Source: a virus. From it: a DNA stretch of 64,000 nt. Positions 8,076 through 64,000 of the stretch are shown piece by piece (position 1 is the first letter of the stretch; the number at the start of each line of letters is the position of its first letter). The DNA is taken from the IMG/VR virus record IMGVR_UViG_3300022542_000792, positions 4,222-68,221 of that record, one strand, 5' to 3'. Both the position numbers and the translations under genes were made by a program. The notes below the pieces were generated by a model, which did not search any database, had not been told where the DNA came from, and saw only the letters and a program-made list of their open reading frames with translations.

Positions 8076-8146
8076 CAAAGTCAATCTTTGTGTTAATCTA
8101 TTAGTTTATATTTATCAATTGGGTGGTAGGGGGATAGGGGGATGTG

Positions 8147-8827
8147 CTAGATATCAAGTTCTTCTACGTACTTTTTCATCATTTCTACATCATTTGGTTG
8201 TTTTCCGAATTTATCCACCCAATAATGAGGACGGATGATAGACTCCATAATAATTCGTTGTTCATCAGAAGTTTGGTGTATTAATAATTCTTTGAACTTG
8301 GGACTGAACAGCAGAATCCAAGGTGATAATCTACGTTCACGAAGTAATGTGATTACTTCATTTGGTTGTAATATGTCAAATATTTCATTTACCTCACATT
8401 CAGCAGCATCCGCTATTTTGAATAATGTATCAATAGTAACCTTGGCTTGACTCAATGGAGATGCACGTCTATCCAAATATTCAAGATATATAGCATACAC
8501 TTGGTCGTTCGTCCATAGTGTAGGAGAAATATCCTTTTCTTTCATTAACGCAACAAATGCATCAACATCAGGAAAGTTTAATTTTTTAACACGTTGTGCA
8601 AAACGATTAAATGATTGGTAATACTTTGACTTTAAAAATGATTGGGAATTCGGAACCATTCGCTTATATGCTTTCATCCACTTCTGGTAGAAAAGCCAAG
8701 CTGCTTGTCCTATAGGCGTACGGAATTCTTCATTACGTTGCATCTGTTTACAGTGATGCTTGAGGTATCTATCCTCTGTAACAAACTTGGCAGAACAGTA
8801 CGAACATTCAAAGTGTTCTTTCTTCAT
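8147..8827 (-). CDS. Hypothetical protein with N-terminal zinc finger
   Basis: FECSYC..F..E..YLKHHC pattern; overlap-coupled to upstream gene. Confidence 0.6.
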   Translation of the reverse strand: MKKEHFECSYCSAKFVTEDRYLKHHCKQMQRNEEFRTPIGQAAWLFYQKWMKAYKRMVPNSQSFLKSKYYQSFNRFAQRVKKLNFPDVDAFVALMKEKDISPTLWTNDQVYAIYLEYLDRRASPLSQAKVTIDTLFKIADAAECEVNEIFDILQPNEVITLLRERRLSPWILLFSPKFKELLIHQTSDEQRIIMESIIRPHYWVDKFGKQPNDVEMMKKYVEELDI

Positions 8828-9297
8828 CTATTTTTCAATTCTCGTTTGATTTTCGTCATCTCTTCTTTCTGTCTTCCCAATTGTTCAGCATACTCTAATA
8901 TATCATCATTGGTCAACATCGGTAATGCTTCAATTGCATGCATTGTGCTATAATTAAAATAGTCTTTAATAACACTAACAGACAATGGTGTTGTAGATGA
9001 TTTTTTAGATAACGCCTTATTCCAGGTATATCGTTGAGACTTTCCACTCGTGCAAGTTGTCATCAAATAGTAGATTAATTCCTTATGCGTATGCATTGAA
9101 AAGACAAAGGGATTGACTAATTCATTAAGGAAGTAAACTTGACGAGCATCTGTTGTTCCAGATAACCATCGCATAACAACTAATGGTTGAAATGCTTTCT
9201 TTTCTTCGTCTGTTAAGTCTTTAAAGAAATTTCTATCTTTCTTACTAATATGATTTAACGTTTGGAATATATCAAGTTTATGCTTCGTCTGTGTCAT
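8824..9297 (-). CDS. Clamp loader small subunit (T4 gp62-like)
   Basis: DIFQTLNHISKKD..LTDEEKKAFQPLVVMRWLS pattern, size, same operon as RFC ATPase. Confidence 0.6.
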   Translation of the reverse strand: MTQTKHKLDIFQTLNHISKKDRNFFKDLTDEEKKAFQPLVVMRWLSGTTDARQVYFLNELVNPFVFSMHTHKELIYYLMTTCTSGKSQRYTWNKALSKKSSTTPLSVSVIKDYFNYSTMHAIEALPMLTNDDILEYAEQLGRQKEEMTKIKRELKNR

Positions 9298-9622
9298 TTG
9301 GTATTCCTAATTTCGTTCCGCAAAACTTACACACAATGTGAGTGTCTTTATATAAAAGGTCATCAAGTGGGTGTATGCATTCTTTAACCATCGTTGCACG
9401 AAGAGCAGTCACATCATCCATAATAGGCATCTTTTGTGCCATCAAATCAAGAATCTGTTCTTCAATAGGACGAATGACGGCAATTAGTTTAACCATGTTA
9501 TCCATTTTACGATTCCAAGATGTCTTCTCACTTCTTGTTGAACTGTTAGCAACAGACTCAAGACGTTGACGTATTAATGTTTCTTCTGGTGTTTCGTTTT
9601 CTGGTCTCTTTCTACGTGCCAT
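9278..9622 (-). CDS. Hypothetical protein, coiled coil plus C-terminal Zn-ribbon
   Basis: CIHP...CKFC; overlap-coupled. Confidence 0.55.
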   Translation of the reverse strand: MARRKRPENETPEETLIRQRLESVANSSTRSEKTSWNRKMDNMVKLIAVIRPIEEQILDLMAQKMPIMDDVTALRATMVKECIHPLDDLLYKDTHIVCKFCGTKLGIPNDTDEA

Positions 9623-9878
9623 TATTATTCTCCATTATACTCATTGCGTTTTCGAATCGTTCTTCTATTGATTTATCACCCACATATGATGCATCAGGTA
9701 TAAGTGTAATTTCTAGTGTTACCTTAGGAGTTTCTCCCATAGGAACACGTATAGAACGCCCATCCATCGTTTGCTCATCTGCATAAGATTTCTCAAATCT
9801 TATATCTGTGCTTGTAATCAACGCATCAAATCCAAAATTTTTAATATATGATTTAAAATCATCTAAAGATGTTATCAT
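9612..9878 (-). CDS. Small protein with C-terminal FENAMS tag
   Basis: 88 aa, TAATG-coupled to upstream gene; ends IEERFENAMSIMENNNGT. Confidence 0.6.
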   Translation of the reverse strand: MITSLDDFKSYIKNFGFDALITSTDIRFEKSYADEQTMDGRSIRVPMGETPKVTLEITLIPDASYVGDKSIEERFENAMSIMENNNGT

Positions 9879-10504
9879 TATTCTATCCCCTTCATTGCTC
9901 GTTCAAAAGCTGTTTTTTGATTCGTATCATGATATACTGACTCAACAAACGACTTTGGTTCGTTAGATGTTGCAGCGAATGTTCCCATTTCTGTTTCTTT
10001 CCAACCACCGTTTCGTATTGCTGCGTTTGTTGTCTGAGTATTCTCCAATCCTGCAAGTTGCTTTTCTGTCTTTTCTGTAGGAATACCCATTGACATTGAT
10101 TTTTCTAATTTTTCCCTAAAGTACCTAATGTCTTCGCCTATATCCAAGGCTTGTCTACTTGGTAATGTTTCGATATGAGAACCTCTGCCTTTTACAGGAT
10201 GTGGGAATGTGAAATCCTCAACTATGGGATGTGGATCATATCCTTTTGTGACTCTTGTGTCTGCATCCAATTGTTTAATTATTTCATCACACGAATATCC
10301 TAAATCTTCTGGAGTCCAACGTTTTGTAATATGTGGAAGTGTGAAGTCTTCAGTAGTTGACTGGTTATCTAATATTTTTGTATTCAAATCATTAACTGCA
10401 CGTAACCTTCTTTTAAGCTCATCAATTTCTTCCAACATTTCAAACCTTTTTGTTCTCAACTCATCGATTTCTTCCTGCATCGTTATTAGATTTTTATTAT
10501 TCAT
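9878..10504 (-). CDS. Protein containing a portal-protein fragment and C-terminal FERAMK tag
   Basis: 44-aa segment with 20/44 ungapped identities to this window's portal; ends TAFERAMKGIE; GGAG SD. Confidence 0.7.
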   Translation of the reverse strand: MNNKNLITMQEEIDELRTKRFEMLEEIDELKRRLRAVNDLNTKILDNQSTTEDFTLPHITKRWTPEDLGYSCDEIIKQLDADTRVTKGYDPHPIVEDFTFPHPVKGRGSHIETLPSRQALDIGEDIRYFREKLEKSMSMGIPTEKTEKQLAGLENTQTTNAAIRNGGWKETEMGTFAATSNEPKSFVESVYHDTNQKTAFERAMKGIE

Positions 10505-10518
10505 TTTTATTATTCTCC

Positions 10519-11451
10519 TTACACACCTGCTAAGCGTATAAACATTGCTGATGCATTTATTTCAGTGTCTGCGACAGCTGAATGCTTGTATAAATGGTCA
10601 GCGATAATAACAATACCAGCTTCCCACTTATCTTGATTTGAAAATTTTGCAGATTTTTCTAAATTCTCGTATAAGAAGCGATATACATCTTCCCATTCTT
10701 CTGCTGCAACATTTCCACACAATAGTTTACGAACTTCAAACCAGTTATCTCTTTCCAATAAATCCAGTAACTTAAATTTGTAATCACCGACTTCGCCAGA
10801 TGATGTTGGTTCTTGAAGAGCACCATCAATTGTATTCTGTTGTAGGAGATTTATAATTTTACGGATGTCAGGATATCCTGCAGTTACATATTTGTCAATT
10901 AAATCAAGAGTAAATTTAACTTGCTCAGTTGCAAGTATTGTAACAACTCGTTCTGCAATTTCATCTTTGTCAAACGATTTGAAACGATAGTGTTGACAAC
11001 GAGAACGAATTGCAGGCATAATTTTATGTTCGTAATTGCAAGTGAGAATAAAGCGAGCACTATCAGAAAACTCTTCCATCAATCTACGCATTACTGCTTG
11101 TCCATTTTGAGTAATGAAATCTGCTTCTTCAAGAAGAACGACTTTATATTCACCCATTGCAAATGTAGAAATGAAATTCTTTAACTTCTCACGGATGACA
11201 TCAACAGAGTTTTCATCTGATGCGTTGATAATAAGAACATCTGTTTCTTCTAGTTCTAATTCTTTAATGAGCATTAAGGCGAGTGTGGTCTTACCACTAC
11301 CTTGAACACCAGAAAGCAACAAGTTAGGAATACTTTGGTCAGCAACCATTTTTAGGATTGCTAATTTTTGTGTGTGGTTTTGGAAGAGATAATCTTCCAC
11401 GGTTTGTGGGCGGTATTTTTCCGTCCAGAGTTTTTCAAGATTTTTTGCCAT
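10519..11451 (-). CDS. Clamp loader large subunit (gp44/RFC AAA+ ATPase)
   Basis: LWTEKYRP, GVQGSGKT Walker A, INASD, LEEAD, FILTCN and IRSRC motifs. Confidence 0.95.
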   Translation of the reverse strand: MAKNLEKLWTEKYRPQTVEDYLFQNHTQKLAILKMVADQSIPNLLLSGVQGSGKTTLALMLIKELELEETDVLIINASDENSVDVIREKLKNFISTFAMGEYKVVLLEEADFITQNGQAVMRRLMEEFSDSARFILTCNYEHKIMPAIRSRCQHYRFKSFDKDEIAERVVTILATEQVKFTLDLIDKYVTAGYPDIRKIINLLQQNTIDGALQEPTSSGEVGDYKFKLLDLLERDNWFEVRKLLCGNVAAEEWEDVYRFLYENLEKSAKFSNQDKWEAGIVIIADHLYKHSAVADTEINASAMFIRLAGV

Positions 11452-11477
11452 TTATTATTCTCCTTGTAGCAACGTAT

Positions 11478-11505
11478 ATTATACTACAAAGAGAAAAAAT
11501 GTCAA
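11478..11505 (-). promoter_or_regulatory. sigma70-type early promoter of clamp-loader operon
   Basis: TTGACA-16 nt-TATAAT, followed by AAGGAG SD. Confidence 0.75.
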
Positions 11506-11507
11506 CT

Positions 11508-12659
11508 TTATTCGTTGGGGGTAGGCTGTCTTTCTAGAACTAATTCAGGGGTACGAACACGAGCGGTAACTTGCTTACGACGAAGAAGCTGCTCAATCTG
11601 TTCTTTTTCCATTTTCTCTTGTGGAGTTAATTCATGTTTTTGGTTCATAGATGATAACATGGATTGTAGCTGCTCAATGCTGCTTGCCAATGGGTTATCA
11701 GTATCTTTTTCTTCAACATTATAATCAAGAAGGTCATCAACTGTTGTTACTGTTGGTTCGGGTTCTTCTGTTTTTTCAATATCTCCATCAGGCAACTCTG
11801 TTACTAAAGAACCTCTACCATCTTCGGGATGTGGATTATCAGGATATTCGTCTTGGTGTGTTTGATGAACATAATCTTCAGCACTAACTTCAACATAATC
11901 ATTTACGCGTTTGTGTACTTTGTATGTGCCATTATCCTTTTGTCGTTGAACAATAGCGATGTTTGAACCAATTGTTAAAATAACGGCAAGCGGGTCAAAG
12001 ACAAATATGATAAGAAAAATCATCCATTTTGTCGCATCGTCAACATCACTACCAAATGCTTTAGCAATAAAGATGATTGGTCCAGTATGCGCTTCTTGTT
12101 GGATTACCGCATTCTTTATTTTGTGTTGTTCAGTTGTTGTAGTTTGAAGCTCACGTGCATATCGTTTAAGGTCAATATCAATTTGAGCACGTTCTGCATT
12201 TTGTGACTCACGCATTTTTCTTCTGTTCGTGCTATGGTTACCAGGAATAGAATCAATTTGAGCATCAAGGCGAGCACGTTGATTAATTCGTTCTTGCTTT
12301 AAATCTCCAATTTCTTTTTTGCGTTCATCAAACAATGCAATCTTTGACTGCATCTCTTTTAATGGAAGTGTGTCTTGTTGATACGCAGCAGAAAGGTAAC
12401 CAAATATACCAGCCGATGTTATTACCATTAAAATAAGGATGGCTGAAATCAAGTATGATTTCATTAAGAATGAAATTGTTGACCAGTATCTATATACGTA
12501 TGAAGCTGAAATAAGTTTTCCAGCTTCTAGTGATGTCGCCATTACTACAACAGGCCAAAAGGAACCTGAAAATATATTTGCTAATCCATAGATACTAAAA
12601 AATGCTGCAGAGCCAGCAATTGAAAGTGTAACGAGGATGAGTGTAACGATAAATCCCAT
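11508..12659 (-). CDS. Membrane protein with coiled coil
   Basis: Three N-terminal hydrophobic helices, coiled coil, further TM (IFLIIFVFDPLAV), acidic tail; late motif upstream. Confidence 0.65.
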   Translation of the reverse strand: MGFIVTLILVTLSIAGSAAFFSIYGLANIFSGSFWPVVVMATSLEAGKLISASYVYRYWSTISFLMKSYLISAILILMVITSAGIFGYLSAAYQQDTLPLKEMQSKIALFDERKKEIGDLKQERINQRARLDAQIDSIPGNHSTNRRKMRESQNAERAQIDIDLKRYARELQTTTTEQHKIKNAVIQQEAHTGPIIFIAKAFGSDVDDATKWMIFLIIFVFDPLAVILTIGSNIAIVQRQKDNGTYKVHKRVNDYVEVSAEDYVHQTHQDEYPDNPHPEDGRGSLVTELPDGDIEKTEEPEPTVTTVDDLLDYNVEEKDTDNPLASSIEQLQSMLSSMNQKHELTPQEKMEKEQIEQLLRRKQVTARVRTPELVLERQPTPNE

Positions 12660-12716
12660 AATTTTTCTCCACTAAAGTAGTTGCATATATTTATGGTTCA
12701 AAATTATGGGACTTTG

Positions 12717-13025
12717 TTATTGTTGAGGATATTCTTGTGAAACAAGCATTACTTTACTAGAATCTGTTTTCCAGATTTCAACACCATCATGCTTAATTCC
12801 TCTAGTCCACATTAATGGTTCAACAAAAATATAATCACCTTTTTGTATATCTTCTTCAGGAACATCAGGTCCAAGTGCTAATACTTTACCCCACCTACCT
12901 TCTTGAGTAGTGTTTTGGTGTCCACCTTTAATTTCAAACCCCCAATCGGTCTTTTCTTCAAATAATCCACCTTTGACCTCATCGGCGAAAAAGAAAAGTA
13001 TGCCATTAAATAATGGTGTTATCAT
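12717..13025 (-). CDS. groES: Co-chaperonin GroES-like
   Basis: ITPLFNGI..GKVLALGPDV..IQKGDYI pattern, 102 aa. Confidence 0.75.
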   Translation of the reverse strand: MITPLFNGILFFFADEVKGGLFEEKTDWGFEIKGGHQNTTQEGRWGKVLALGPDVPEEDIQKGDYIFVEPLMWTRGIKHDGVEIWKTDSSKVMLVSQEYPQQ

Positions 13026-13243
13026 TTGTCTGCCTCTGTATTATCTGTTATTGTTGGTTCAACATCTACTTCAACTGTTTCAACTTTCTTAATCTTTTTC
13101 GTGCGACGACGAAGTTTCTTGTCAATGAAGTCTTCACGATTTCTAACATCTGTTGGCTTTGGTGCTGAAGCAATTTGGGCTTTGATTTTAAGAAGGTCAA
13201 AATCTATAACCTCACCTTTAGCGCTTCTTGTTTTCTTTGGCAT
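13022..13243 (-). CDS. Small basic hypothetical protein
   Basis: ORF with AGGAG SD, ATGA overlap with groES. Confidence 0.6.
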   Translation of the reverse strand: MPKKTRSAKGEVIDFDLLKIKAQIASAPKPTDVRNREDFIDKKLRRRTKKIKKVETVEVDVEPTITDNTEADK

Positions 13244-13265
13244 ACTGGAATTCTCCTATGTATTA

Positions 13266-13841
13266 TTATTCGACTTTCAAAAAATCATCTATGTTTAGTT
13301 CATATTCAACCGAGTCTACATCGTGTACACCTATAAGATATAACACAAACGAAGAAACACTGCTTCCTCGTCCAACACCCCATACAATATTTTGTGAGTC
13401 TAGGGTATTTATGATATAAATTATCGTACGGAGAACATTTGTTAATCCAAGTTTTTTATATAGAGAAAGTTCTGTAGAAATGCGGATTAATCTATCATTA
13501 AGTTGTTGTTCATTTAATTCGTCACACCGTATATCAAGTTGTTGAGCAATATAATCAACAAGGTCGAGATCCATATATTCTTCTGGAATATTCCACGAAA
13601 AATCTAATGATGAGACAGAATCCTTAACCCTAATTTGCTCATCTGGTCCAACAAATCTATTAAATTGCTTTATTTCATTAGTAATTTTGTCAGTGAAGAT
13701 TCCAGACAATGACGCACCAGTTTGTATAAGTTGCATAAGTGCATCACTAGCAAACATTGAGTCGCCATCATAAAACAGACACCTATCTTTTAATTGTGTA
13801 CTATTCATAGGAGCTTTTATACTCACCAGATGATGTATCAA
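13266..13841 (-). CDS. dnaE: DNA polymerase III alpha (DnaE-type) N-terminal palm fragment
   Basis: RISTELSL..IVWGVGRGSSVSSFVLYLIGVHDVD..L..DDFLK corresponds to the DnaE GxGRGSxxGS..LGITxxD region; true start may be MNSTQ. Confidence 0.85.
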   Translation of the reverse strand: MIHHLVSIKAPMNSTQLKDRCLFYDGDSMFASDALMQLIQTGASLSGIFTDKITNEIKQFNRFVGPDEQIRVKDSVSSLDFSWNIPEEYMDLDLVDYIAQQLDIRCDELNEQQLNDRLIRISTELSLYKKLGLTNVLRTIIYIINTLDSQNIVWGVGRGSSVSSFVLYLIGVHDVDSVEYELNIDDFLKVE

Positions 13842-14187
13842 TATCTGGTGTTTTTACTTGCTGTTGTCCCTTCGCAATTGGTGCATTTGGATTCAATTCA
13901 ATTGGTGCTGGTGGTGCTGGCTGGTGTACTACACCATCCAATGAACTTGGTCCTGGAGCATAAGCAGGTGTTGGTACTGGAATGTATGCGGGTGGGGTTG
14001 GAATTGCTGGTACTGGTTCAGGAATAGGAGCATCTTCAATCATATCAATCTTATTACGAATTCGTCTCCATTGTTCAATAGAAGGAACCCACTCGTCACC
14101 TTGCATTTCTTCAACACCTTCAAGCCAAGCACGAAACTCAACTAATGTTGTTTTCTTTCTACTTTTGGTTTTCTTTTTTGCCGCCAT
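13801..14187 (-). CDS. Hypothetical protein, Pro-rich
   Basis: ORF track; EFRAWLEGVEEMQ..W.P...QW N-terminal domain. Confidence 0.6.
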   Translation of the reverse strand: MAAKKKTKSRKKTTLVEFRAWLEGVEEMQGDEWVPSIEQWRRIRNKIDMIEDAPIPEPVPAIPTPPAYIPVPTPAYAPGPSSLDGVVHQPAPPAPIELNPNAPIAKGQQQVKTPDIDTSSGEYKSSYE

Positions 14188-14212
14188 AATTATTATCTCT
14201 TGTTATTTGTTA

Positions 14213-14701: not shown

Positions 14702-14729
14702 AATTTCTCTTTTTTATTGTTATTGTTGT

Positions 14730-14758
14730 ATTATACTAAATTTAATTGGTATAGTCAA
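14730..14758 (-). promoter_or_regulatory. sigma70-type promoter
   Basis: TTGACT-17 nt-TATAAT. Confidence 0.75.
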
Positions 14759-18367: not shown

Positions 18368-18373
18368 CAGATA

Positions 18374-35886: not shown

Positions 35887-37476
35887 TTAGAACGACATTG
35901 GGACTGGTTCATCATCTTCATCATAATTATCATTTCCATTATCTTTGAACCAATCATCATCTTCTATGGAATATAGCTTATCATGAGCTGCTTGTTCATA
36001 CGTTGCAATTTCTTCTAACAATCTAATAACAACAAGAACTGCTGATATACAATCATCTGTACTGCCACGTTGAGCAGAATACGAACCAGCCTTACGGGTA
36101 AATGTTTTAAGTTCTTGAAGAAGAATTCCAGACTTGATTCCAAGGTTTCCTTTTTCTAACATTTCTTTTAAGTTAAGACAAGCACGCATTTTAGATTTTT
36201 GAGTAGTTGTCATTCCTCTACGCTTAGCACCTTCTTCAGAAATAAATTCAGACATTATTGGAGGAGAATCATCTGCTTCATATAAAGAAATAATTCCTTC
36301 ACCAACACCGTTATTTTCTACAGAGAAATAAATTGTGCAGTTTTTCTTTTCAAGGTATCGTAATACATTTTTAAGTACTTGATACATTTGTGGTGATGAC
36401 ATAGAGTTTGAACGATACTCTGCAACTTGTTCCATACTTGGGAATTCAAATACTTCAATGACACTAAAATCTTCTCCAGTTCCAGTAGCAGGGTCAACTC
36501 CAACCAAATACGTTCCTTCGTGAACAATTTCTTTATAAAATTTTACCTCACGAATTTCAAACTCTGGTTTAATTTTTCCAATGATAGGGGTAAGTTGACT
36601 TAGAATCAAAGAGTTAATCAATAACGCATCAGAGGATAAGAACTCACATTCGTATTCCTGACTCCACTTTTGTTCACCAATAAGAGCAATTTGTTGTTTT
36701 TTAAATCGCTCTTGGTTGGGACGAGGTAATGCATCCCACCGAATATGCATAGGTGTAAATGTTAAGTTTTCTACATTACCATCTTCATCTTCAAATTCCA
36801 TTCCTTTACCAACTTTAGCAGCACGCCAAAGTGTTGCAAATAAATCAGCATCACCATTTGGTGTAGAGGACATAATACAGCTACCACCAGTTGATAACGT
36901 AGGTAAGATAGAAGTCCAGAACTCATTCTGAATGTTTGGTTTAACGAATGCAAATTCATCCAAGTATAATAATGAAAGAGATTCACCACGACCAGAATCT
37001 TCTGATGTTGCAGTTGAATCAATTTTGGAATCATTATCAAACGACACGCTATGTTTGTTCCAACCATCATCTGTAACACCAGGTTTTAACCACATAGGTA
37101 AGTTTTCATATGCATAACGGATACGACGAATCATTTCCATAGCACCTTTATTTTTATTAGATGCTATAAGAATGTTTTTATCAAAGTGAAATATTGCAAA
37201 CCATAAAAGATAGATTGCTGAGGTAATTGATTTACCAGTTTGGCGAGCAGATAGTATAATGTTATAACGGTTATCTTGAAATGCTTGCATCATTTCAACC
37301 TGATAATCATATAACGTAAATGAAATAGCACCACGAGTTGGATGCTGAATTTTTACATACTTTCTTGTGAAATATATAGGGTCAGTTGCACATCGTTTAA
37401 GTTCAAGAACTTGCTCAGGAGTATACTCAGTCTCCTGCCCTGCTTTCTTTATCTTATCATTTCTTCTTCCAGCCAT
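35887..37476 (-). CDS. terL: Terminase large subunit (T4 gp17-like)
   Basis: YDYQ, SARQTGKS, LYLDEFAFV, SSTPNG, QEYECEF, GVDPATG and DDC motifs. Confidence 0.95.
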   Translation of the reverse strand: MAGRRNDKIKKAGQETEYTPEQVLELKRCATDPIYFTRKYVKIQHPTRGAISFTLYDYQVEMMQAFQDNRYNIILSARQTGKSITSAIYLLWFAIFHFDKNILIASNKNKGAMEMIRRIRYAYENLPMWLKPGVTDDGWNKHSVSFDNDSKIDSTATSEDSGRGESLSLLYLDEFAFVKPNIQNEFWTSILPTLSTGGSCIMSSTPNGDADLFATLWRAAKVGKGMEFEDEDGNVENLTFTPMHIRWDALPRPNQERFKKQQIALIGEQKWSQEYECEFLSSDALLINSLILSQLTPIIGKIKPEFEIREVKFYKEIVHEGTYLVGVDPATGTGEDFSVIEVFEFPSMEQVAEYRSNSMSSPQMYQVLKNVLRYLEKKNCTIYFSVENNGVGEGIISLYEADDSPPIMSEFISEEGAKRRGMTTTQKSKMRACLNLKEMLEKGNLGIKSGILLQELKTFTRKAGSYSAQRGSTDDCISAVLVVIRLLEEIATYEQAAHDKLYSIEDDDWFKDNGNDNYDEDDEPVPMSF

Positions 37477-41320: not shown

Positions 41321-43432
41321 TTAAATCTCAGCGCCTGATGCAACAACGCGTATTGGTACGTAGATAAATTCAGCTGCTTTGACTGGCTTAATAGCCACAT
41401 CAATATACATTTCGTTTCTGTCTATACGGTCAGGTGTGTTATTTGATTCATCACAAACTGTTGCGAAATCATATAAACCACGTTTAACCACTATGTCTCC
41501 CAAGAATCCATCAACGACAGCTTTAAGATTGTCACGGGTTAATTGGTCATTTGGTTCGAATACGAATGCAAGTGTATTTTTACGCAATTGACGCTTAATG
41601 TACATTACAAGACGTGAAACATTTACACGGTCAAGAGCACTTGCGTCAGATGCTGATGTCTTCTGTCCCCAGATAAGAATACCACGACCAGGGAAGAATG
41701 CAATCGGATTAACGTTTGTGAAGTATTTGTATAAATCATCACGTTGACCTTGATTAACATGCAATGCATTAAATGTTGTTGCAGTTCCAAGTTCACCTGA
41801 AACATAACCAACATCAGTAAGACCAGTAACAAGACCACGACGTGTTCCTGCTGGTGCAAACCATAATTGACTTACTTCATCACTAAATGCATATGTGCGA
41901 AGTGCTGTTCCACTTGCTGCAATGAATACATTCTTTCCATCAATATTTGATGCAAGTCCATGAGGATAGTAATAAGCAACATTTGTAGATGATTGACGAG
42001 CTGGTGTTCCAGCCCATGCAACTACTTCAGATGCTGTCATATCCATTGGCGTATCTGCGATAACAAATGCTTCACCACTAATATCAGCAGAAAGTGCTAA
42101 CATTTCATCAACTACTTCATGATATCCAGGGCAAAGAATTAAATTAAATTCAAAGTTTTCAGAACGTACTTCTGTATTAGCATTCATTGTTCCTTGAAGT
42201 GCTGTAACTATTGCTGCACGACGTGCAGTATCATTAGCACCAAGGCTTGTAAGATTTCTAAACTCAGCAGTAAACTTAAAGTTGTCTGCTGCATTAGTAA
42301 GAGATGTTGTAGCTTCTGCAGGAGACCATTCTGTAGGGGTTGGACTTCCACTACCACCAGCAACCCAAGCTGCTACATCACCTTCAAAACCAAGATATGT
42401 ACCAGTAGCTGCTTGTGAATAACCATTTCCATAAACTGGAAGAGCAACATCAATTGTAACACCGTTAACTGGAAGTGAAAATGAAACAAAACCATTTAAG
42501 TTTGCGAATAATGCTGTAGCTCCTGATCCGTCTGTAATACTGATTGTTGAAGCAGCACCTTCTAATGTACTTGTAATTACAATATTATCAGCTTGTGGAG
42601 AGCCACCTGGAGTTAAAGATGCAACTGCACCTGTAAGGTCAGTGTTTATTGCTGCCAATAAAGCTGTCCAAGTTGTTGCATCTGATCCAGAGAAGGAAAT
42701 ATTATTTACCGTACCATCAACTGTAACCGTAGCTGTATAAGTAGTACCACCAACAAGGCCAGGATCAGCACCAACATCAGTAATGCTGTTACCCATATCA
42801 ACGACTTGGATACCACTTGTGCTTGCAGCAGGAATACCATTATCATCAAAGAAGTCTGTTTCAAGACCTGAGAAAGTTGCTAAGTCCCAAATATCTGTTG
42901 TTGCATCATTAGCAAGAGAAACTATCTCTGCTGCTGTTACTGTTGTTCTGAAACCAGGATCGGTTGTAACAAAACCATTTGTATTATTGTATTCGTCAAG
43001 TAATGCTTGTGCAAGAATTGCAATAGTTGTTCCTGCAGTAACAATTTTGGAATCCCATCGGGTACGTAATGTTACAGTGTCATCATCAAGATTGACATTT
43101 GCACGGACTACATAAGCTCTATTACCTAAACCAAGGAATTGGTTTAATCCAAATAGGCCGTATTCATTTCTTGCATCACCGTGTTGAGCATTTCCACTAG
43201 AATCTTCAAGGAAGCTTGGAACACCATATAATTCAAGACTCTGTTTCAGAGACGTTACTGTGCGAACAACATCGTGTTCATATGTGCCAGCAGCAGGTGT
43301 AGTTCCATCAATTTGAACTTTTTCATCAGCTGTTGCAACAAAAATTAGAGGGACAGTGGATGCGGCCGCTGGGATGAAGAAACTTTCATCTGTTACCGTT
43401 ACACTTACACCTGGACTTACTAATGTAGCCAT
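41321..43432 (-). CDS. Contractile tail sheath protein (gp18-like)
   Basis: LVSPGVSV, WFAPAGTRRG, WGQKT, DRVNVSRL, FEPND and PVKAAEFIY motifs. Confidence 0.95.
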   Translation of the reverse strand: MATLVSPGVSVTVTDESFFIPAAASTVPLIFVATADEKVQIDGTTPAAGTYEHDVVRTVTSLKQSLELYGVPSFLEDSSGNAQHGDARNEYGLFGLNQFLGLGNRAYVVRANVNLDDDTVTLRTRWDSKIVTAGTTIAILAQALLDEYNNTNGFVTTDPGFRTTVTAAEIVSLANDATTDIWDLATFSGLETDFFDDNGIPAASTSGIQVVDMGNSITDVGADPGLVGGTTYTATVTVDGTVNNISFSGSDATTWTALLAAINTDLTGAVASLTPGGSPQADNIVITSTLEGAASTISITDGSGATALFANLNGFVSFSLPVNGVTIDVALPVYGNGYSQAATGTYLGFEGDVAAWVAGGSGSPTPTEWSPAEATTSLTNAADNFKFTAEFRNLTSLGANDTARRAAIVTALQGTMNANTEVRSENFEFNLILCPGYHEVVDEMLALSADISGEAFVIADTPMDMTASEVVAWAGTPARQSSTNVAYYYPHGLASNIDGKNVFIAASGTALRTYAFSDEVSQLWFAPAGTRRGLVTGLTDVGYVSGELGTATTFNALHVNQGQRDDLYKYFTNVNPIAFFPGRGILIWGQKTSASDASALDRVNVSRLVMYIKRQLRKNTLAFVFEPNDQLTRDNLKAVVDGFLGDIVVKRGLYDFATVCDESNNTPDRIDRNEMYIDVAIKPVKAAEFIYVPIRVVASGAEI

Positions 43433-46554: not shown

Positions 46555-49428
46555 TTATCCTACAATAAAGGTTGTTGCAATTCCAAAATCTTCAACTGTA
46601 TTAACAATAAAGTTATCAAGTTGTTCATAACATTCTGCCATATCAGTTTCTGCTCTTGCAATAAGCTCACCTGCGTTAAGAGATACACCACCACCAGCAC
46701 CTGGAAGTGAAGCATATTTACCACGAATTTCAGCAAGCATAAGACGAGCTTGTGCAGATGCATATTTTTCAATCCAAGATTTAGTCCAACGATCAGTTAA
46801 TAATTCTTGTTCTGTTCTTTCAATTGACGCATCAATAAGAATTCTTTCATCATAACCAAATGTCTGATAGAAATTTAGTTGACGTGTTTGTTCATTCCAT
46901 TGGAACACTAAACGAGTAGCAAACATATCTTCCAATGTTTCAATATATGATGCAACAAGATGATAACTCAATAAATCAAATGTTCCCATTGTATATAGAT
47001 GTTGTATAACTGTCTGTCCAAAAATACCACCTTCATATGCTGTAGTTAAGAATGCAGAATTTGTTCTGTATGCAGCCATAACTGTAACAATTTTATTAAA
47101 CCCAACGGTTTTATTTGTTAATCGTAGTGATTGTTGACCTGCAGGGACATCAACAAAGAAAAATGCGCGACGATAAGCAGCAGCACTTCGTTTGCGTAAT
47201 GATTCCAATCCAGCTGTGATTGCTGTATCCAACTGATATTTTGTAAGTTCAACTTGAACAACTGGATAACCAAGCTGTGCACGAATACTATCCATTAGTT
47301 CTCGTCTTTCATCTGGAGTACCATCATCACCAACACCAATTTGTTGATATTGAGGAGTAGGATCTACCCCATCTGTTCCAGCTACATAATCTACAAGTCC
47401 AGTAAATCCAGCAAGAGAATCAAACAAATCAACATCAGTTAAAATGATTGAAGAAGTGCTACCTGTCGTAGAGCTTGTGAATAAAAGATTACCATCAGAT
47501 GTTAATTCAACAATAGCAGCGTGTACTGAAGCAACATATGCTACTCCATTCCATTCATTAAGAATTTCATTAATTGTATCATACCATAGAGAACCAGTTG
47601 CTGGTGTTAATGGTAGAGTTGTAAATAACGCTGATACCCAAGAAACACCATTCCATTGATTCAAAGCAGTATTTGTTGTATCAAACCAAAATATACCAGT
47701 CGCTGGTGTATGTGGTGCTGCAGTTGCATCTACAGGATTAAATGCTACCCAAGTACCTGGTGAACCAGCTCGTTCATACCAAATATTATTTGTTGTGTCA
47801 AACCAAACATCTCCAGTGCTAACAATAGTTGGATCTGTTAAGCTATTAATAAATGTAACAGCTACCCACATTGAACCATCCCAACGATTTAGAGTAGTTG
47901 CTATTGTATTATACCAAACATCTGCAGTCGTCATTGTTGGTGGCGATGCTGGGTCTGTTGCTTGTTGTAAGAATGTAGTAACTAAGTCCCAAGATGATGT
48001 AGTGACATCCCAAACATAAAGGTTATCTCCAACAGAATCCCACCACAACCCACAAGAGTCACGATTTGTTGGATCGTCGGCTAATGATAATACTGTTAGG
48101 TCTGTCCAAGAAGTATTTGTTACATCACGTTGTTTTAATTCTTCTGTAGTAGGATTATACCAATAATTATTTGGTGCAGGTAATGTTGGTTCTGTTGAAC
48201 TTATAGTAGCTGTTAAAGTATCCCATGACGCTCCATTCCACTGCTTAAGAACATTATTTGTTTCATCAAACCAGTATGTACCAACCGTTAAACTATTCGG
48301 ATCCACATTCCAATAAATTGCATCAACATCATTCCAACTATTGGTTTGATCATTCCACTGATGGAGGAGTAAACTTACACTATCGTACCAATATGTTCCG
48401 AATGTTGGATATGTTGGAAGTGTTGGATCAGTCGCCTGGTTCCATAAAGTTTTTTCACACCATGTGTTGCCTTCCCAAATATACGCATTTGTTTCATTGA
48501 ACCAATAATCATTTCCATCAAGAGCTGTTGGATCTTGACTATACGTTGTGAATGTTTGAGTTACCCAACTTAAAGGCGAGCCACTCCATTTTGAAAGAAT
48601 AAGTGTTGTCGGGTTGTACCAATAATCTCCAGCACTTGGAGAATTAGGAGCTGAGGATTCTACGATGACGGTTACTTCAACGTGTTGTGTTCCATCCCAT
48701 TGGAATAATTCTTCAGTAGTTGCATTCCAATAATATGCACCAGTATTAGGTGATGTTGGTCCTTGAGGAGGATTGTTGACTTTCCCAATACTCTTTGCTA
48801 TTTCTGTTACGAGTTGATCATACGATGGAGTATTTGTTCCATCAACTGTTACTGAATATTCTGTGCCATCAATATCAATAGTAAATGTATAGTCTACACC
48901 AGTTGATAAACCTGTATTATCAGTCCCTGCGACTCCTAATGTTGCTACTTGGTAACCAGCAACTGGACTTACTTCATTACCACCGACATAATCCAACGCA
49001 TAAGCGTGAACGCCTTCTATATGATAACGATAAAGTTTATCAACAGCAAAACCAGAAACATACACAGCCATTTCAGCTGTTAATCCTGTTACATCAAAAA
49101 ATGTTGTTGTTTTGTCATCATACAATGCACTAATAACAAGAGATGTACCAATTTTATCACCAGCGTGTAGATTTGAGTCACCAGTTGGGTCAGCTGTATA
49201 TACTGTTCCGTTGACTGGACTTTTGTCAGGAGAGGTGTGCGTGGTATCAAGTGTAACAATAATACCATTATATGCTTGGTCATCTGCAGAACAACCTGAC
49301 GCTGGATTTGGAATATCCCAAGATATACGACCGGATGTTGGTCCAGTTCTCGTAAATCTAATTGTTATTTCCTGACCTTCTGTGCGAATTTGAAAGGGAC
49401 TGTCAGCGGATGAATCAAATGTTCCCAT
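46555..49428 (-). CDS. Neck protein (gp13-like) with long Trp-rich repeat insertion
   Basis: C-terminal LGYPVVQVEL..W...YA.A....L..IRGKY..LPG.GG.SLN; middle has many G.(Y/L)W(Y/F)(D/N)...L..W.G..W repeats. Confidence 0.75.
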   Translation of the reverse strand: MGTFDSSADSPFQIRTEGQEITIRFTRTGPTSGRISWDIPNPASGCSADDQAYNGIIVTLDTTHTSPDKSPVNGTVYTADPTGDSNLHAGDKIGTSLVISALYDDKTTTFFDVTGLTAEMAVYVSGFAVDKLYRYHIEGVHAYALDYVGGNEVSPVAGYQVATLGVAGTDNTGLSTGVDYTFTIDIDGTEYSVTVDGTNTPSYDQLVTEIAKSIGKVNNPPQGPTSPNTGAYYWNATTEELFQWDGTQHVEVTVIVESSAPNSPSAGDYWYNPTTLILSKWSGSPLSWVTQTFTTYSQDPTALDGNDYWFNETNAYIWEGNTWCEKTLWNQATDPTLPTYPTFGTYWYDSVSLLLHQWNDQTNSWNDVDAIYWNVDPNSLTVGTYWFDETNNVLKQWNGASWDTLTATISSTEPTLPAPNNYWYNPTTEELKQRDVTNTSWTDLTVLSLADDPTNRDSCGLWWDSVGDNLYVWDVTTSSWDLVTTFLQQATDPASPPTMTTADVWYNTIATTLNRWDGSMWVAVTFINSLTDPTIVSTGDVWFDTTNNIWYERAGSPGTWVAFNPVDATAAPHTPATGIFWFDTTNTALNQWNGVSWVSALFTTLPLTPATGSLWYDTINEILNEWNGVAYVASVHAAIVELTSDGNLLFTSSTTGSTSSIILTDVDLFDSLAGFTGLVDYVAGTDGVDPTPQYQQIGVGDDGTPDERRELMDSIRAQLGYPVVQVELTKYQLDTAITAGLESLRKRSAAAYRRAFFFVDVPAGQQSLRLTNKTVGFNKIVTVMAAYRTNSAFLTTAYEGGIFGQTVIQHLYTMGTFDLLSYHLVASYIETLEDMFATRLVFQWNEQTRQLNFYQTFGYDERILIDASIERTEQELLTDRWTKSWIEKYASAQARLMLAEIRGKYASLPGAGGGVSLNAGELIARAETDMAECYEQLDNFIVNTVEDFGIATTFIVG

Positions 49429-51601: not shown

Positions 51602-53008
51602 TTATGCAAAGTCAAGAGCAGATACAGCTATCTTACCGTAGTAATCAGCACTGTTTCCAAGTGATGTAGTTGCGCTAGTGAATGAAGTCTTGCCGTAGCG
51701 AGTCATCAAACTAACAACAGGTTGGAATGTAACTGGGTTAACAACCACACCTGAACTCATCAATGGAATATATGGGCAGTAGAAGTAACCAGTATCAGTT
51801 TCTCCGTTTCCACCTTTATAACCAATAAGGATTGTATCATTGTTACTTGCTTGAGTAGTACCAAGATCAAGACCAGCACCTGCTTGATTCCACAAGTATG
51901 AATAAACCTTGATTGAACCATTAAGAGTACCAACTAACATTGTATTGTTAGGACCTTTGAAAGAACCTTCAACAGCTGGAGCAAATACTGACTTGCTTGC
52001 AGACTGAAGAACAGAAACAATCATTGGTGAAACAACGATGAAGTTACCAACACCACGACGAGTCTTACGACCAATCTCGTTAGCAACACGGTTAATAATT
52101 ACTGAGATGTTAGCAAGACGATCACCTACGTATGCAGGAGCGTATGTACCAGCAACACCACCACCGTAACCACCACCTGAAGCACCATCAAATGTATCAG
52201 TTGTACCAGCAAGAGCGATAAGATCGCTAATGATTTCAGCGTCAATTTCTTGAACGATTTCAGCAGAAAGCGCTTGAGTCATTTCTGATTCAATATCAAG
52301 TCCGTGTTGTGAATTCATATCTTGCATAGCTTCGATAGTCCAACCAGCTTGAAGTTTACGTGAACCAGCTTCAACAGCTTGGCTTACAACTTCAAGTCCC
52401 ATTTTACGACCACCAGAACCTTCAAGGTAACTACCAGAACCACCATAAGAACGGTTAGCAGTAGTTGCAGTGATGTCAAGGCTTGAAGGCCATGCTTCAC
52501 CAGTAGTTTCTGAACCATCGATCGCAGTTGTTCCGATACCAATACCACCAGCACCAGCTACTTGAGCATCAGCTCCAGCAGGTAATGGAGAACCAGAACC
52601 AGCACCAGCACCACCAGAATAGAAAGCACGAAGAGCAGGGCTGTTGCCAAACGCTTCATTACCAGCTGTGATGCTTTGTGCACCGAATGCATCATTAGTT
52701 GTATCAGTTACTGATTCTTTGTAAGTGTAACGCAAAGAATAAACAAGTCCAACAGGACCAGTCATTGGTTGTACACCAACTAATTCACTTGCAATTGTAC
52801 CAGGAATGATACGACGAATCATTGGGATTAAGATTTTACGGAATCCAGCAATGTCGTGTGCAACAGTTGCGCCAGAAGCGGCTGTTTCCATCATCATTTG
52901 GTTTTTTTGGTTTTCAAGAAGAGGTGCGACAATCTTACGTTTGTCAGCGGCTAATCCTTCAAGTAACGCTTCTTTGGTCTCTGACCAATTTTCGAACATT
53001 TCGTCCAT
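51602..53008 (-). CDS. Major capsid protein (T4 gp23-like)
   Basis: LENQ, GVQPMTGPVG, SRKLQAGWT.E..QD..HGLD, EIDAEI and YCPYIPL..TFQP..MTRYG motifs. Confidence 0.95.
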   Translation of the reverse strand: MDEMFENWSETKEALLEGLAADKRKIVAPLLENQKNQMMMETAASGATVAHDIAGFRKILIPMIRRIIPGTIASELVGVQPMTGPVGLVYSLRYTYKESVTDTTNDAFGAQSITAGNEAFGNSPALRAFYSGGAGAGSGSPLPAGADAQVAGAGGIGIGTTAIDGSETTGEAWPSSLDITATTANRSYGGSGSYLEGSGGRKMGLEVVSQAVEAGSRKLQAGWTIEAMQDMNSQHGLDIESEMTQALSAEIVQEIDAEIISDLIALAGTTDTFDGASGGGYGGGVAGTYAPAYVGDRLANISVIINRVANEIGRKTRRGVGNFIVVSPMIVSVLQSASKSVFAPAVEGSFKGPNNTMLVGTLNGSIKVYSYLWNQAGAGLDLGTTQASNNDTILIGYKGGNGETDTGYFYCPYIPLMSSGVVVNPVTFQPVVSLMTRYGKTSFTSATTSLGNSADYYGKIAVSALDFA

Positions 53009-55347: not shown

Positions 55348-56946
55348 TTAAAGTTCTCCACCAAGTTCTCCACCACCAAGTTCTCCACCAAGTTCTCCAC
55401 CAGCAGTCATCTCTCCTCCACCCATCTCTCCACCCATCTCTGCAGCAGCGGCTGCAGCTTCAGGTTGGTACAGTGCTAGAAGATCTTTTTCATTACCATC
55501 TGGATCAAGTCCTTTCTCTTCACGAAGTTTACGTTCATTATCAATAATTTCATCATCAGTAAGTTGTAAATAACGTTCAAGAATGAAACGTTTAGAAAGA
55601 TATGGAATACCATCAGCACTACCATATGCAGATAATAATGCAGCATCTACTTCTTGTTGTCGGTATGTACCAAAGTTAGTAGGTTCTGGTAAACGAATTC
55701 TATAAAGAGTTTCATCAATGCGGATGTTAGTTTTTTGGAGATATTTTTTAAATTCCGTATCAAGGATATTTTCAATGTGTCCTTGAAGTCGCATTACATA
55801 TAATGCAAATTTGAATTCTTCAATATATGCGACACCTACTTTACCGTCATTGAATACTGCACCTTCTGCTCCTTTTTTCATATAAGAAACAGGAACACGT
55901 AAGCCTCTCCAAACTTTATCTTGGAAGTATTCTAAGTCAGCAAGTTCACCAAGACCTTGTCCACCAGGTAATGTTTCTACACGAGAACCTCGACCATCTG
56001 CACGTTGGGCAAAAAAGAAATCTTCTGACATTGATTGAGGATTATATACTGATTCAACTTCACTTTTTCCACCAGATTGGGTAGGAATTTTTTTCTGTTT
56101 GATTTCGTTCTTGATTTGTTCAAGATATGTTTTAACACGTTGAGGAGGCATCTTACCAACATCAATATAGAATACTCGACGTTCAGGAGCACGTTGTACA
56201 CGATAGATAAGGATAGCATCTTCTAATAATTCTTTTTGTTTGTGAGCACGGAATACTGGACGAAGAACAGATTCTCCAAATGGAGCTGTATCAGATAAGT
56301 CATCGTTTAAAGTAAACCGAACAATTTCATCTGCAGAAATAATTTCTGTTTCAGTTTCTTGTGTCCCTGTAACAGGAGCACCATATGAAGATTTAGCTTT
56401 TGTTATACTCTTTTTTACTTGCCACCCAATGATATTTGTCACATCATCTTCTTCAACGATGGCACCAATTATATTTTTAGGATGTAAAAATGCCCAACGT
56501 TTAAAATGGTCTTCTTGTTTACGAAAGAAACAATCACCATATTTGGCTGTTGTGCGTGAAACTTTGAACAGACGATTTTCCCAATCATGAGATTTGCACC
56601 AATGATGCATTGCAGCCCGAAGAGTAAGGACAATGTTACTTGGTAATTTTTCTTCATCTTCAGCAAGAATATCAAGTTCCAGTGGCATATCTGTCTTTGG
56701 ATTATTACCTGTCATTTCTTCAGCTATTGTATCAAGTGCACGAGATACTTCAACATCATTATCCATTAAATCATATTCACGGTAACGAGTTAAACGTGAA
56801 GCTGACCCTTGAACTAGTCGAGAGTACCAAGTGTAGTTACCATATGTCCCTTGATCACCAAGAGACTGGCTATCAGAAATCTTGGTAGTTTCAGGCTTCG
56901 GTGTTACGATTTTAAAATAGTTGGTCCACTTTGGATTCTGGGTCAT
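55348..56946 (-). CDS. Portal protein (T4 gp20-like)
   Basis: LLEDAILIYRVQRAPERRVFYIDVG.MP and EDFF..ETLPGGQ..YF motifs. Confidence 0.95.
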   Translation of the reverse strand: MTQNPKWTNYFKIVTPKPETTKISDSQSLGDQGTYGNYTWYSRLVQGSASRLTRYREYDLMDNDVEVSRALDTIAEEMTGNNPKTDMPLELDILAEDEEKLPSNIVLTLRAAMHHWCKSHDWENRLFKVSRTTAKYGDCFFRKQEDHFKRWAFLHPKNIIGAIVEEDDVTNIIGWQVKKSITKAKSSYGAPVTGTQETETEIISADEIVRFTLNDDLSDTAPFGESVLRPVFRAHKQKELLEDAILIYRVQRAPERRVFYIDVGKMPPQRVKTYLEQIKNEIKQKKIPTQSGGKSEVESVYNPQSMSEDFFFAQRADGRGSRVETLPGGQGLGELADLEYFQDKVWRGLRVPVSYMKKGAEGAVFNDGKVGVAYIEEFKFALYVMRLQGHIENILDTEFKKYLQKTNIRIDETLYRIRLPEPTNFGTYRQQEVDAALLSAYGSADGIPYLSKRFILERYLQLTDDEIIDNERKLREEKGLDPDGNEKDLLALYQPEAAAAAAEMGGEMGGGEMTAGGELGGELGGGELGGEL

Positions 56947-63229: not shown

Positions 63230-63619
63230 CTAATCTTGGGAGATTCCCTTCATTGCTCTTTCGAATGCTGTTTGTAAATCAGATTCATTGGCGTTAATCG
63301 AAATAGGGATATATACGAACTCAGCTGATTTGTTAGGTTTAATTGTTACATCAATTGAAGTTTCTCCATATCCAACCGATACAGCAAAGTTGTCAATAGC
63401 ACCCCTATCCTTCATATTATCTAGGAATGATTGTGTATACATTTCAACTGAATTTGCTATGCAAGCTCTTGTTGCCTCATCATTTATTTCGAATTTGTAT
63501 TCATCCAACACTGTTTCGATTTGTTGTTTAAGATACACCATAGTTCGTTGTATGTCTACCTTATCCCATGGTGATTGTAATCTTTGATCTGCACCAACAT
63601 CTAAATTATAACTAGACAT
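63230..63619 (-). CDS. Stand-alone tail-sheath C-terminal-domain paralog with FERAMK tag
   Basis: Aligns to C-terminus of sheath 41321..43432; ends TAFERAMKGISQD. Confidence 0.75.
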   Translation of the reverse strand: MSSYNLDVGADQRLQSPWDKVDIQRTMVYLKQQIETVLDEYKFEINDEATRACIANSVEMYTQSFLDNMKDRGAIDNFAVSVGYGETSIDVTIKPNKSAEFVYIPISINANESDLQTAFERAMKGISQD

Positions 63620-63960
63620 TATTGATCCTCCACTATTTTCATTGCTCTTTCGAATGCTGCAATGTCATTTGAATTTCTGCCTTCTTTGACAGGAACCCAA
63701 GCTTCCATCGTCATCCACCCAGTATCATCCATTCTCATTCTACGACAAACAAATTCAGCACATAATTGTTTACTAGTCTCAAAAGTGTTTGGGTCAATGT
63801 AATCAATTAGCTTTTCTGAATTTGGTGTTCTTTTTATAGAATACCAACCATGTTGTTCACCATTAGCTTTCATTAATTTGCCTGTAACTAAATCAGCATT
63901 GTCATCACCTTCAATAAAAAATGGCTGTCCTTCATATTTGTCTCTTTCAATGATTTTCAT
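63619..63960 (-). CDS. Small protein with FERAMK tag (weak similarity to capsid C-terminus)
   Basis: TAATG-coupled on both sides; ends AAFERAMKIVEDQ. Confidence 0.65.
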   Translation of the reverse strand: MKIIERDKYEGQPFFIEGDDNADLVTGKLMKANGEQHGWYSIKRTPNSEKLIDYIDPNTFETSKQLCAEFVCRRMRMDDTGWMTMEAWVPVKEGRNSNDIAAFERAMKIVEDQ

Positions 63961-64000
63961 TATTCTATTGTCTTCATTGCATTTTCGAATTTGCTAACTA
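63960..64000 (-). CDS. 3' end of a gene ending in the FENAMK tag (truncated by window end)
   Basis: Manual translation ..VSKFENAMKTIE*, TAATG-coupled to next gene. Confidence 0.65.
   Translation of the reverse strand, partial: VSKFENAMKTIE

Follow-up and report, generated by a model that had tools for sequence, protein, structure and literature searches.

The window analysed here, a 64,000-nucleotide stretch of viral DNA, covers bases 4222-68221 of the IMG/VR record IMGVR_UViG_3300022542_000792, a 68-kb record estimated to be 20% complete, and carries among its replication genes an open reading frame (ORF) of 208 residues, p208 (also P0001), part of which resembles the portal protein encoded in the same window. 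The portal, clamp loader and scaffold of the window are closest, at 40-55% amino-acid identity, to those of XacN1, Xoo-sp13, CM1/RAS14 and RsoM2USA, which are giant myoviruses of Xanthomonas, Stenotrophomonas and Ralstonia. PHROG annotation delineates a replication and recombination block (helicase, UvsY-like, UvsX-like, SSB, a piece of DNA polymerase, gp44-like and gp62-like) and a virion block (TerL at 35887..37476, TerS, neck with its adaptor at 46555..49428, tube, sheath, capsid protein, a scaffold-like protein, prohead protease and portal).

The p208 gene (9878..10504, minus strand; delimited from the ORF list and its orthologues) lies directly downstream of the gene for the gp44-type clamp-loader large subunit (10519..11451, minus strand; Pfam and PHROG annotation). 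It has the same orientation as gp44 and starts 14 nt past the gp44 stop codon, with a GGAG ahead, as the assignment of the gene to the clamp-loader operon in the earlier note implied. The gp62-like clamp-loader small subunit is a different ORF, of 157 residues (8824..9297, minus strand), matched by phrog_225 at 1e-11; p208 matches only a portal family and is ruled out as the gp62 subunit.

A portal-like segment in the clamp-loader operon

The portal of the window is a 532-residue protein (55348..56946, minus strand) matched over positions 3-433 of the Pfam Portal_T4 profile; its C-terminus (55348-55420, minus strand) carries GGEL/GGGEL repeats and ends in ...GGGEMTAGGELGGELGGGELGGEL. The earlier note had proposed that a portal-derived segment is embedded in a gene of otherwise non-structural appearance, and a direct comparison of the two proteins bears this out. 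Residues 89-132 of p208 (10109..10240, minus strand), which contain the motifs KGRGSHIETLP and EDIRYFREK, match portal residues 301-344 (55915-56046, minus strand) without gaps and with 20 identities in 44 positions. The best ungapped 44-mers from shuffled p208 sequences averaged 10.6 identities, with a maximum of 15, and none of 1000 shuffles reached 20. Smith-Waterman alignment of p208 with the portal scores 109, whereas shuffled sequences give 36.8 +/- 6.0 (none of 300 as high, z 12.1), and BLASTP gives a gapless match of p208 residues 74-163 to portal residues 286-375, with 27 identities in 90 positions and an E-value of 5e-11.

Significance against gp20-type profiles, which the same note had named as a check, was reached in two libraries: the Pfam Portal_T4 profile (PF07230) matches p208 residues 85-149 (10058..10252, minus strand) at 33.1 bits, above its gathering cut-off of 22.9 bits, and the PHROG portal family phrog_213 matches at 9.9e-9, no other PHROG family being found. 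The Pfam match spans profile positions 245-307, or 63 of 433. Of the full portal architecture of wing, stem, clip and crown, the 208-residue protein lacks wing and crown, and it therefore cannot be a portal but must be a derivative of one. No profile library searched names p208 as a whole, and comparison of p208 alone with the sequences of the Protein Data Bank (PDB) returned chance-level matches only, with E-values of at least 1.1. A tblastn search of 50,697 phage records with p208 matched 181 of them, and all of the best 40 of the 181 fell under annotated portal genes. None of these matches reaches 80% coverage of p208, and an orthologue is accordingly absent from the deposited phages. The segment had also been described as one of the most conserved in gp20-type portals, and this fits the alignment of the window portal with L091, an unrelated metagenomic T4-like portal: 130 of 485 positions are identical overall, and identities are visibly much denser over this block. 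The GRGS...ETLP core of p208 and the portal is near-identical at the DNA level. Residues 89-133 of p208 score 103 against the window portal, compared with 83-86 against the portals of XacN1, RsoM2USA and RAS14.

To place the segment in a portal of known structure, positions were transferred to T4 gp20 through the alignment of the window portal, and the numbering was verified at N291, M292, R295, K296, K309, R311, N323, R338, R339, K342 and T349. Residues 89-132 of p208 are equivalent to gp20 residues 325-368. This part of gp20 takes in the final strands of the clip, its inner loop, the beginning of the channel loop and the first part of stem helix alpha7. KGRGSHIETLP represents the inner clip loop together with the T349-L-P equivalents: R107 of p208 corresponds to gp20 K342 in the inner clip loop, and T113-L114-P115 to T349-L350-P351 at the start of the channel loop. 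E124-R130 (EDIRYFR) corresponds to gp20 residues 360-366 at the start of alpha7, six of the seven residues being identical to T4. According to the accessible part of PMC4493910, the gp20 clip consists of residues 279-358 and alpha7 of residues 359-377; the clip is exposed on the outer side of the capsid and serves as a binding site for both the packaging ATPase and the neck, its three-stranded sheet is built of strands from adjacent subunits, and the clip tip (N291-K296) contacts TerL. The same source reports that a clip peptide, residues 288-311, binds gp17 and inhibits packaging. The TerL-contacting tip has no counterpart in p208. Judged from its sequence, p208 is a degenerate, stand-alone copy of the portal stem-clip module, which projects from the capsid and makes up the entrance of the channel.

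Other parts of p208 surround this copy. The N-terminus is a long helix with an internal EEIDEL repeat (residues 3-47; 10364..10498, minus strand), modelled by AlphaFold2 (AF2) with a predicted local distance difference test (pLDDT) score of 86-96. The pattern EDFTxPH does occur twice, as the earlier note had it, in the form EDFT(L/F)PH. The first copy, EDFTLP at residues 52-57 (10334..10351, minus strand; regex scan), is invariant in three close orthologues, and the second, EDFTFP at residues 96-101 (10202..10219, minus strand), is the equivalent of portal E308-D309-F310 and of T4 gp20 E332-D333-Y334. Beyond the N-terminal helix, the AF2 model contains confident helices at residues 117-139 (alpha7-like) and 144-165, and the strand and loop part, residues 88-119, has pLDDT below 50, a value in keeping with a part of the chain that takes up its fold on a partner. 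At the C-terminus, the FERAMK tag pointed out beforehand is present within AFERAMKGIE (residues 199-208; 9881..9910, minus strand), where a helix is predicted at residues 197-205 with low confidence.

Relatives of p208 and a set of tagged virion-protein fragments

A word-indexed search recovered two orthologues of p208, P0002 (193 residues, 44% identity) and P0003 (192 residues, 38%), and a profile search of 1.84 billion representative proteins added P0011 (232 residues) and P0013 (317 residues), giving a family of five. P0012, a sixth match of the profile search, was discarded as an unrelated repeat protein aligned over only 19 columns. The five proteins are intact ORFs of 192-317 residues from five divergent genomes. 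All keep D-x-x-Y-F-R, with D125, Y128, F129 and R130 at the alpha7 start invariant in 5 of 5 members, and the five-member alignment shows the same for two residues of the tag, A203 and M204. Four relatives that retain the core motifs speak against a segment that drifts neutrally or is missing from orthologues, the outcome that the earlier note had set against its own proposal; p208 is evidently under constraint rather than decaying.

The module content of the family varies between members. BLAST pairs KGRVPQIEPLP of P0011 with KGRGSHIETLP of p208, and in Smith-Waterman comparisons with the window portal and L091, similarity to at least one of the two exceeds all 300 shuffles in four of the five members (P0001, P0003, P0011 and P0013). 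The Portal_T4 cut-off is passed by p208 alone; P0003 reaches 14.7 bits (E 0.013). The alignment of P0003 begins at portal ...LIYRVQRAPERRVFYIDVGKMPP... and contains 28 identities in 110 positions (z 8.8). With hhalign, the family profile falls on portal residues 257-350 with an E-value of 1e-4 and a probability of only 57.8%, and the N-terminal helix region of p208 aligns, at this level, with the helix region of the portal clip. The homology would accordingly be wider than 44 residues, since in relatives of p208 the match reaches as far back as the end of stem helix alpha5, and at family level it appears to run from there through the clip to alpha7. The family looks like a free-standing copy of the portal stem-clip-stem unit, the front part of which has probably been replaced in p208 by a duplicated helix. 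In marine T4-like portals from IMG/VR (L106-L131), the alpha7 start reads EDIEYFRKKL, which is nearer to EDIRYFREKL of the family than to ADLEYFQDKV of the window portal.

Three relatives contain a piece of a second virion protein. The C-terminal module of P0002, P0011 and P0013 matches residues 73-98 of the major capsid protein of the window (ASELVGVQPMTGPVGLVYSLRYTYKE; 52715..52792, minus strand) and carries its conserved VGVQPM strand. Similarity to the capsid protein exceeds all 300 shuffles in these three proteins and not in P0001 or P0003. The module of P0011 passes the cut-off of the Pfam Gp23 (major capsid protein) profile with 25.0 versus 24.4 bits, that of P0013 lies slightly below it with 20.9 bits, and the segment of both that matches the capsid residues reads IVGVQPMTEP...F.I..R(Y/F). 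The T4 equivalents of the strand are gp23 I111-Y131, which overlap the Gol region, presumably gp23 residues 93-122. In the accessible part of a review, Gol is described as the most conserved part of gp23 and as binding EF-Tu (PMC3014915). In p208 itself, a capsid-like module is undetectable (z 0.2), and the family alignment places KSFVESVY (residues 184-191; 9932..9955, minus strand) at the position of the capsid-like strand of the relatives. The earlier note had read this motif as portal sequence. Its match of 7 of 8 residues to KSEVESVY at portal residues 294-301 stands (when p208 without its main segment was shuffled, 1 of 1000 shuffles reached 7/8), but the position makes its origin ambiguous: the portal match may be secondary, and the motif may be derived from the capsid protein rather than from the portal.

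A portal motif also occurs on the other side of gp44. The gene directly upstream encodes a 383-residue membrane protein (11508..12659, minus strand), and its C-terminal tail has gained a third copy of the motif from the portal loop (GRGSLVTELP), present as PHPEDGRGSLVTELPDG at 11784-11834, with 9 of 13 residues identical to the portal (0 of 1000 shuffles) and 10 of 13 to P0003. A multi-pass membrane protein is conserved upstream of gp44 in XacN1-like phages, and the XacN1 homologue lacks the loop motif. The tail also holds the DL..Y..E..I.QL stretch seen in the p208 family. This protein may be a membrane-anchored version of the same portal mimic. Its loop motif is reminiscent of portal initiation in T4, where gp40, a membrane-bound head-assembly helper that is not known to be portal-derived, is encoded among replication genes, as p208 is.

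The tag at the end of p208 recurs in the window. FE(R/N)AM lies within 13 residues of the stop codon in exactly five of its ORFs, in the ending pattern FE(R/N)AM-x-x-(E/D/S), and no other window ORF of at least 40 residues has FE.AM in its last 22 residues. All five genes are on the minus strand and form two runs with TAATG stop-start overlaps within them. In the first run, p208 overlaps p88 (9612..9878; ORF list), an 88-residue ORF that ends in a variant of the tag, ...RFENAMSIMENNNGT. The second run contains p129 (63230..63619, ending ...TAFERAMKGISQD), the 113-residue p113 (63619..63960, ending ...AAFERAMKIVEDQ; ORF list) and the 3' end of a fifth ORF (63963..64000, ending ...VSKFENAMKTIE), which overlaps p113 by TAATGA and is cut by the end of the contig. 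p129 consists of the C-terminal domain of the tail sheath plus the tag: it passes the cut-off of Phage_sheath_1C (PF17482) with 31.3 versus 26.9 bits and matches sheath residues 598-703 (41324..41641, minus strand) by BLASTP with an E-value of 2e-13, the tag starting where the sheath ends. Its orthologues P0009 and P0010 reach 34.9 bits and, under the cut-off, 15.6 bits on the same profile. p129 is encoded beside a RuvC-like resolvase and a helicase, distant from the sheath gene.

The remaining tagged proteins have no such evident parent. The AF2 model of p88 has a mean pLDDT of 84, with the tag inside a helix (residues 71-85). Foldseek found no match for it in the PDB at E-values up to 0.001, and the best hit of a wide VIA-align search had a Z-score of 4.0; tube-like families (P2 GpU, Dit and the contractile injection system tube) are suggested by its features in the ESM Atlas with a score of 0.90, a lead only. 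For p113, there was no Pfam, PHROG or NCBIfam family, no match in phage records and no Atlas feature match. Scans of viral contigs with p208, the family alignment, p129 and the p129 alignment found no small relative: all 26 matches of the family alignment lay within portal-sized frames or frames cut by contig ends. A single metagenome scan returned one ordinary portal locus and nothing else.

The tag is kept in orthologues of p129 and p113 (AFERAMKVVDQY, AFERAMGIVTD and AFERAMGVVNEFG). In P0005, a metagenomic p113 orthologue, an 18-residue deletion removes most of it (...MEAW-MKVVED), so the tag can be lost in nature. The DNA encoding the tag in p208 differs from the other copies at synonymous sites, which argues for selection on the peptide; for p208, a repeated regulatory element in the DNA was rejected on the same grounds. 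Across IMG/VR, an AFERAMK-coding pattern occurs in 86 stretches, only 4 of them within 11 residues of a stop and all 4 in unrelated contexts, and none forms a convincing C-terminal tag. An FE[RK]AM-coding pattern is absent from the XacN1 and Xoo-sp13 genomes. By eye, the end of the scaffold-like protein (53066-54013, minus strand; ...LQRLAGLIE), a C-terminal segment of the prohead protease (54187-54813, minus strand; ...YLKRAIMKFLEE...) and ...FFESEVKKFLES in the XacN1 prohead protease bear a loose likeness to the tag.

These small proteins, built from pieces of virion proteins and ended by one short peptide common to five otherwise unrelated ORFs, are a previously undescribed set. Since the set includes a sheath domain, its explanation must cover a family of virion-protein fragments and not the portal alone. 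With about 20% of the genome in the record, the full genome may hold many more tagged ORFs, which could come to a couple of dozen in all. Between gp44 and the gp62-like gene, XacN1 and Xoo-sp13 carry just one small ORF, which identifies p208 and p88 as an insertion.

Some further features of the window lie outside these subjects. A 191-residue ORF (13266-13841, minus strand) matches only a piece of DNA polymerase, annotated in XacN1 as Pol III alpha, and suggests a polymerase split over several genes. Two neighbouring tail-tube paralogues of 420 and 194 residues are encoded at 39281-40543 and 40680-41264 (minus strand), the tube domain of the larger one covering residues 172-370. Between portal and prohead protease lies a 107-residue ORF (54841-55164, minus strand) whose second half is nearly all D/K/E repeats, and an overlapping frame yields an 83-residue ORF rich in K, M and T.

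Candidate functions of p208 and the tagged proteins

Our tentative preference, placed just ahead of a role in immune evasion, is that p208 is an interface mimic acting on the portal assembly or packaging machinery of the phage itself. The clip strands and the alpha7-like helix, predicted to be disordered or partly folded when alone, would pair with an unassembled portal protomer or with a ligand of the clip, much as a neighbouring portal subunit does. Such pairing would cap or time the formation of the portal ring or packaging, and p129, as the sheath-domain sibling, would act likewise on sheath subunits. Mimicry itself, binding, the choice of partner, whether the effect is that of a chaperone or of a brake, and what the tag does are all inferred. 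What favours this interpretation is the retention of the putative inter-subunit sheet strands and of alpha7 in a segment predicted to be disordered alone, the finding that the gp20 clip peptide 288-311 binds gp17 and blocks packaging (PMC4493910, accessible part), the best score of p208 within the clade being that against its own portal, and the nature of its sibling p129, which is a sheath self-association domain.

Several observations weigh against it. P0002 shows no significant similarity to the portal (13 and 34 of 300 shuffles reach its scores) and lacks the GRGS...TLP stretch; the family profile does not retrieve gp20 from PDB sequences at E-values up to 1 (T4 gp23 appears at 0.88), and its hhalign probability on the portal is modest. 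The alpha7 start of the family (EDIRYFR) is nearer to that of marine T4-like portals than to ADLEYFQ of the phage's own portal. p208 is absent from the nearest cultured relatives despite the same virion module and is hence not a core assembly factor. Lacking the clip tip that contacts TerL, it is a weaker candidate for mimicry towards TerL. The timing of expression is a further concern. The motif TATAAATA, which we take to be the T4 late-promoter consensus, occurs 10 times in the window versus 6.3 expected, a number not above chance (9 of 100 shuffles reach 10). Seven copies stand no more than about 55 nt ahead of an ORF start in the virion blocks; the region from 8076 to 25466 has none. The position of p208 among replication genes, with no such motif nearby, suggests expression before the structural proteins; p208 is probably expressed together with the replication genes. 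Finally, mimicry of an interface leaves the shared tag unexplained.

It is also possible, if doubtful, that the giant phage carries an early-made battery of decoys derived from its own virion proteins, whose common tag performs a neutralising step and which together blind the host's pattern-recognition sensors for the conserved core proteome of phages. The tagged proteins would display the most conserved and hence most sensor-exposed pieces of the virion (the portal stem-clip, the Gol-overlapping capsid strand and the sheath C-terminal domain) before the real proteins are made, and would occupy host sensors without activating them; the tag would provide a common step, such as blocking the oligomerisation of the sensor or passing it to a disposal factor. 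This would suit the behaviour of an accessory gene: p208 and p88 are an insertion relative to XacN1 and Xoo-sp13, which also lack the FE[RK]AM-coding pattern, and the family counts 5 members of variable module content in 1.84 billion representatives. Placement with replication genes and the joining of motifs from two different virion proteins in one polypeptide fit as well, as does the description of Gol as the most conserved part of gp23 (PMC3014915, accessible part). According to the accessible text of 10.64898/2026.01.04.697583, the portal and most of the core structural proteins are sensed by Avs families, and short motifs are what Lit and CapRel recognise in capsid proteins. The same text describes Avs sensors as enveloping whole folds over extended interfaces, to which a partly disordered fragment may not bind, and does not yet count the tail sheath among the triggers shown. 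No precedent for trigger-derived decoys appears in the accessible part of the EVADES preprint. A Gol-like peptide would, moreover, be expected to trigger Lit-type systems instead of blocking them, and p208 itself has no detectable capsid-like module.

Less probable, and in our view unlikely, is that FE(R/N)AM is an encapsidation signal and that the tagged proteins are packed into the head and perhaps injected, the virion-protein fragments being either working parts or mere raw material. Terminal addressing of this kind is known from the T4 capsid-targeting sequence, the HK97 protease tail and encapsulin cargo peptides, and a terminal peptide that is predicted to be helical, shared by unrelated ORFs and kept in orthologues is what it would lead one to expect. 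The loose likeness to the C-terminal segments of the scaffold-like protein and the protease points in the same direction, but it was judged by eye, without statistics, and the scaffold C-termini of relatives differ in their last residues. No late-promoter-like site lies upstream, and packaging as cargo would not explain why the bodies of these proteins are virion fragments. Two further explanations are very improbable. That p208 is functionless debris of a partial duplication or of recombination would agree with the presence of only a portal fragment and with the varying composition of relatives, of which P0002 lacks GRGS...TLP and the p113 orthologue P0005 has lost most of the tag; it is contradicted by intact ORFs with invariant motif residues in five divergent genomes, by a tag conserved in three protein families with synonymous differences in its DNA, and by translational coupling through TAATG overlaps. 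Equally improbable is an adaptor that attaches through its tag to the sliding clamp, or to some other protein of replication, and tethers a portal-like module to replicating DNA, coupling replication to packaging. In T4, clamp partners use extreme C-terminal peptides and the terminase has a link to the machinery of late transcription and the clamp, and p208 directly follows gp44 in the clamp-loader operon. The tag is nevertheless unlike the hydrophobic peptides that bind clamps, other tagged genes adjoin the RuvC-like resolvase and the helicase instead of the clamp loader, and no clamp gene is recognised in the window annotation. When p208 (5-row alignment) was modelled in complex with residues 40-495 of the portal, without controls, the score was 0.00 against a mark of 0.32, a result that weighs neither for nor against binding.

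Comparison with known systems and significance

The closest known relative of p208 is the gp20-type portal (PF07230; T4 gp20; 3JA7, 6UZC), to which it is homologous over the clip strands, the inner clip loop, the T-L-P loop and the start of alpha7. It differs in its length (208 versus 532 residues) and missing domains, in the internal duplication of a strand, in the long N-terminal helix and in a foreign C-terminal module with the tag. Small relatives of the interaction module of a larger protein, from which the other domains are missing, are known in eukaryotes as microProteins or dominant-negative fragments. Likewise, p208 is a small homologue of such a module and has no other portal domain; the p208 set differs from microProteins in having several parents and a shared tag. 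Among the papers listed by literature searches, none was seen from its title or abstract to describe phage microProteins derived from virion proteins or portal mimics. In T4, capsid-targeting sequences are short shared peptides that address unrelated proteins, and they are N-terminal, whereas the tag described here is C-terminal.

The anti-defence protein DSAD1 of phage SPbeta is not known to be a homologue of the trigger. It competes with the tail-tube trigger of DSR2 and so counteracts a sensor of virion proteins (PMC11087589, accessible part); in the case of p208, unlike DSAD1, the putative trigger would be the very source of the protein. Competition by a soluble piece of a portal clip has an experimental precedent in the gp20 clip peptide 288-311 (PMC4493910, accessible part), a laboratory reagent that covers the clip tip and helix alpha6, whereas p208 lacks the tip and is strongest at the later strands and alpha7. 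p208 is best filed under protein mimicry by self-derived fragments, with a shared tag that is undescribed.

If the tagged proteins bind their parents, the assembly of portal, capsid and sheath would have a natural set of regulators derived from the phage's own proteins; this set would reveal how polymerising proteins are kept under control in a giant phage and would offer ready-made peptides that inhibit packaging. Should host sensors be the targets instead, the tagged proteins would be the first counter-defence proteins to have evolved by copying the trigger itself, and would point to the sensed surfaces of portal, capsid and sheath proteins. Under either interpretation, the shared C-terminal tag would mark a common partner or pathway and provides a sequence handle for finding further members of the set.

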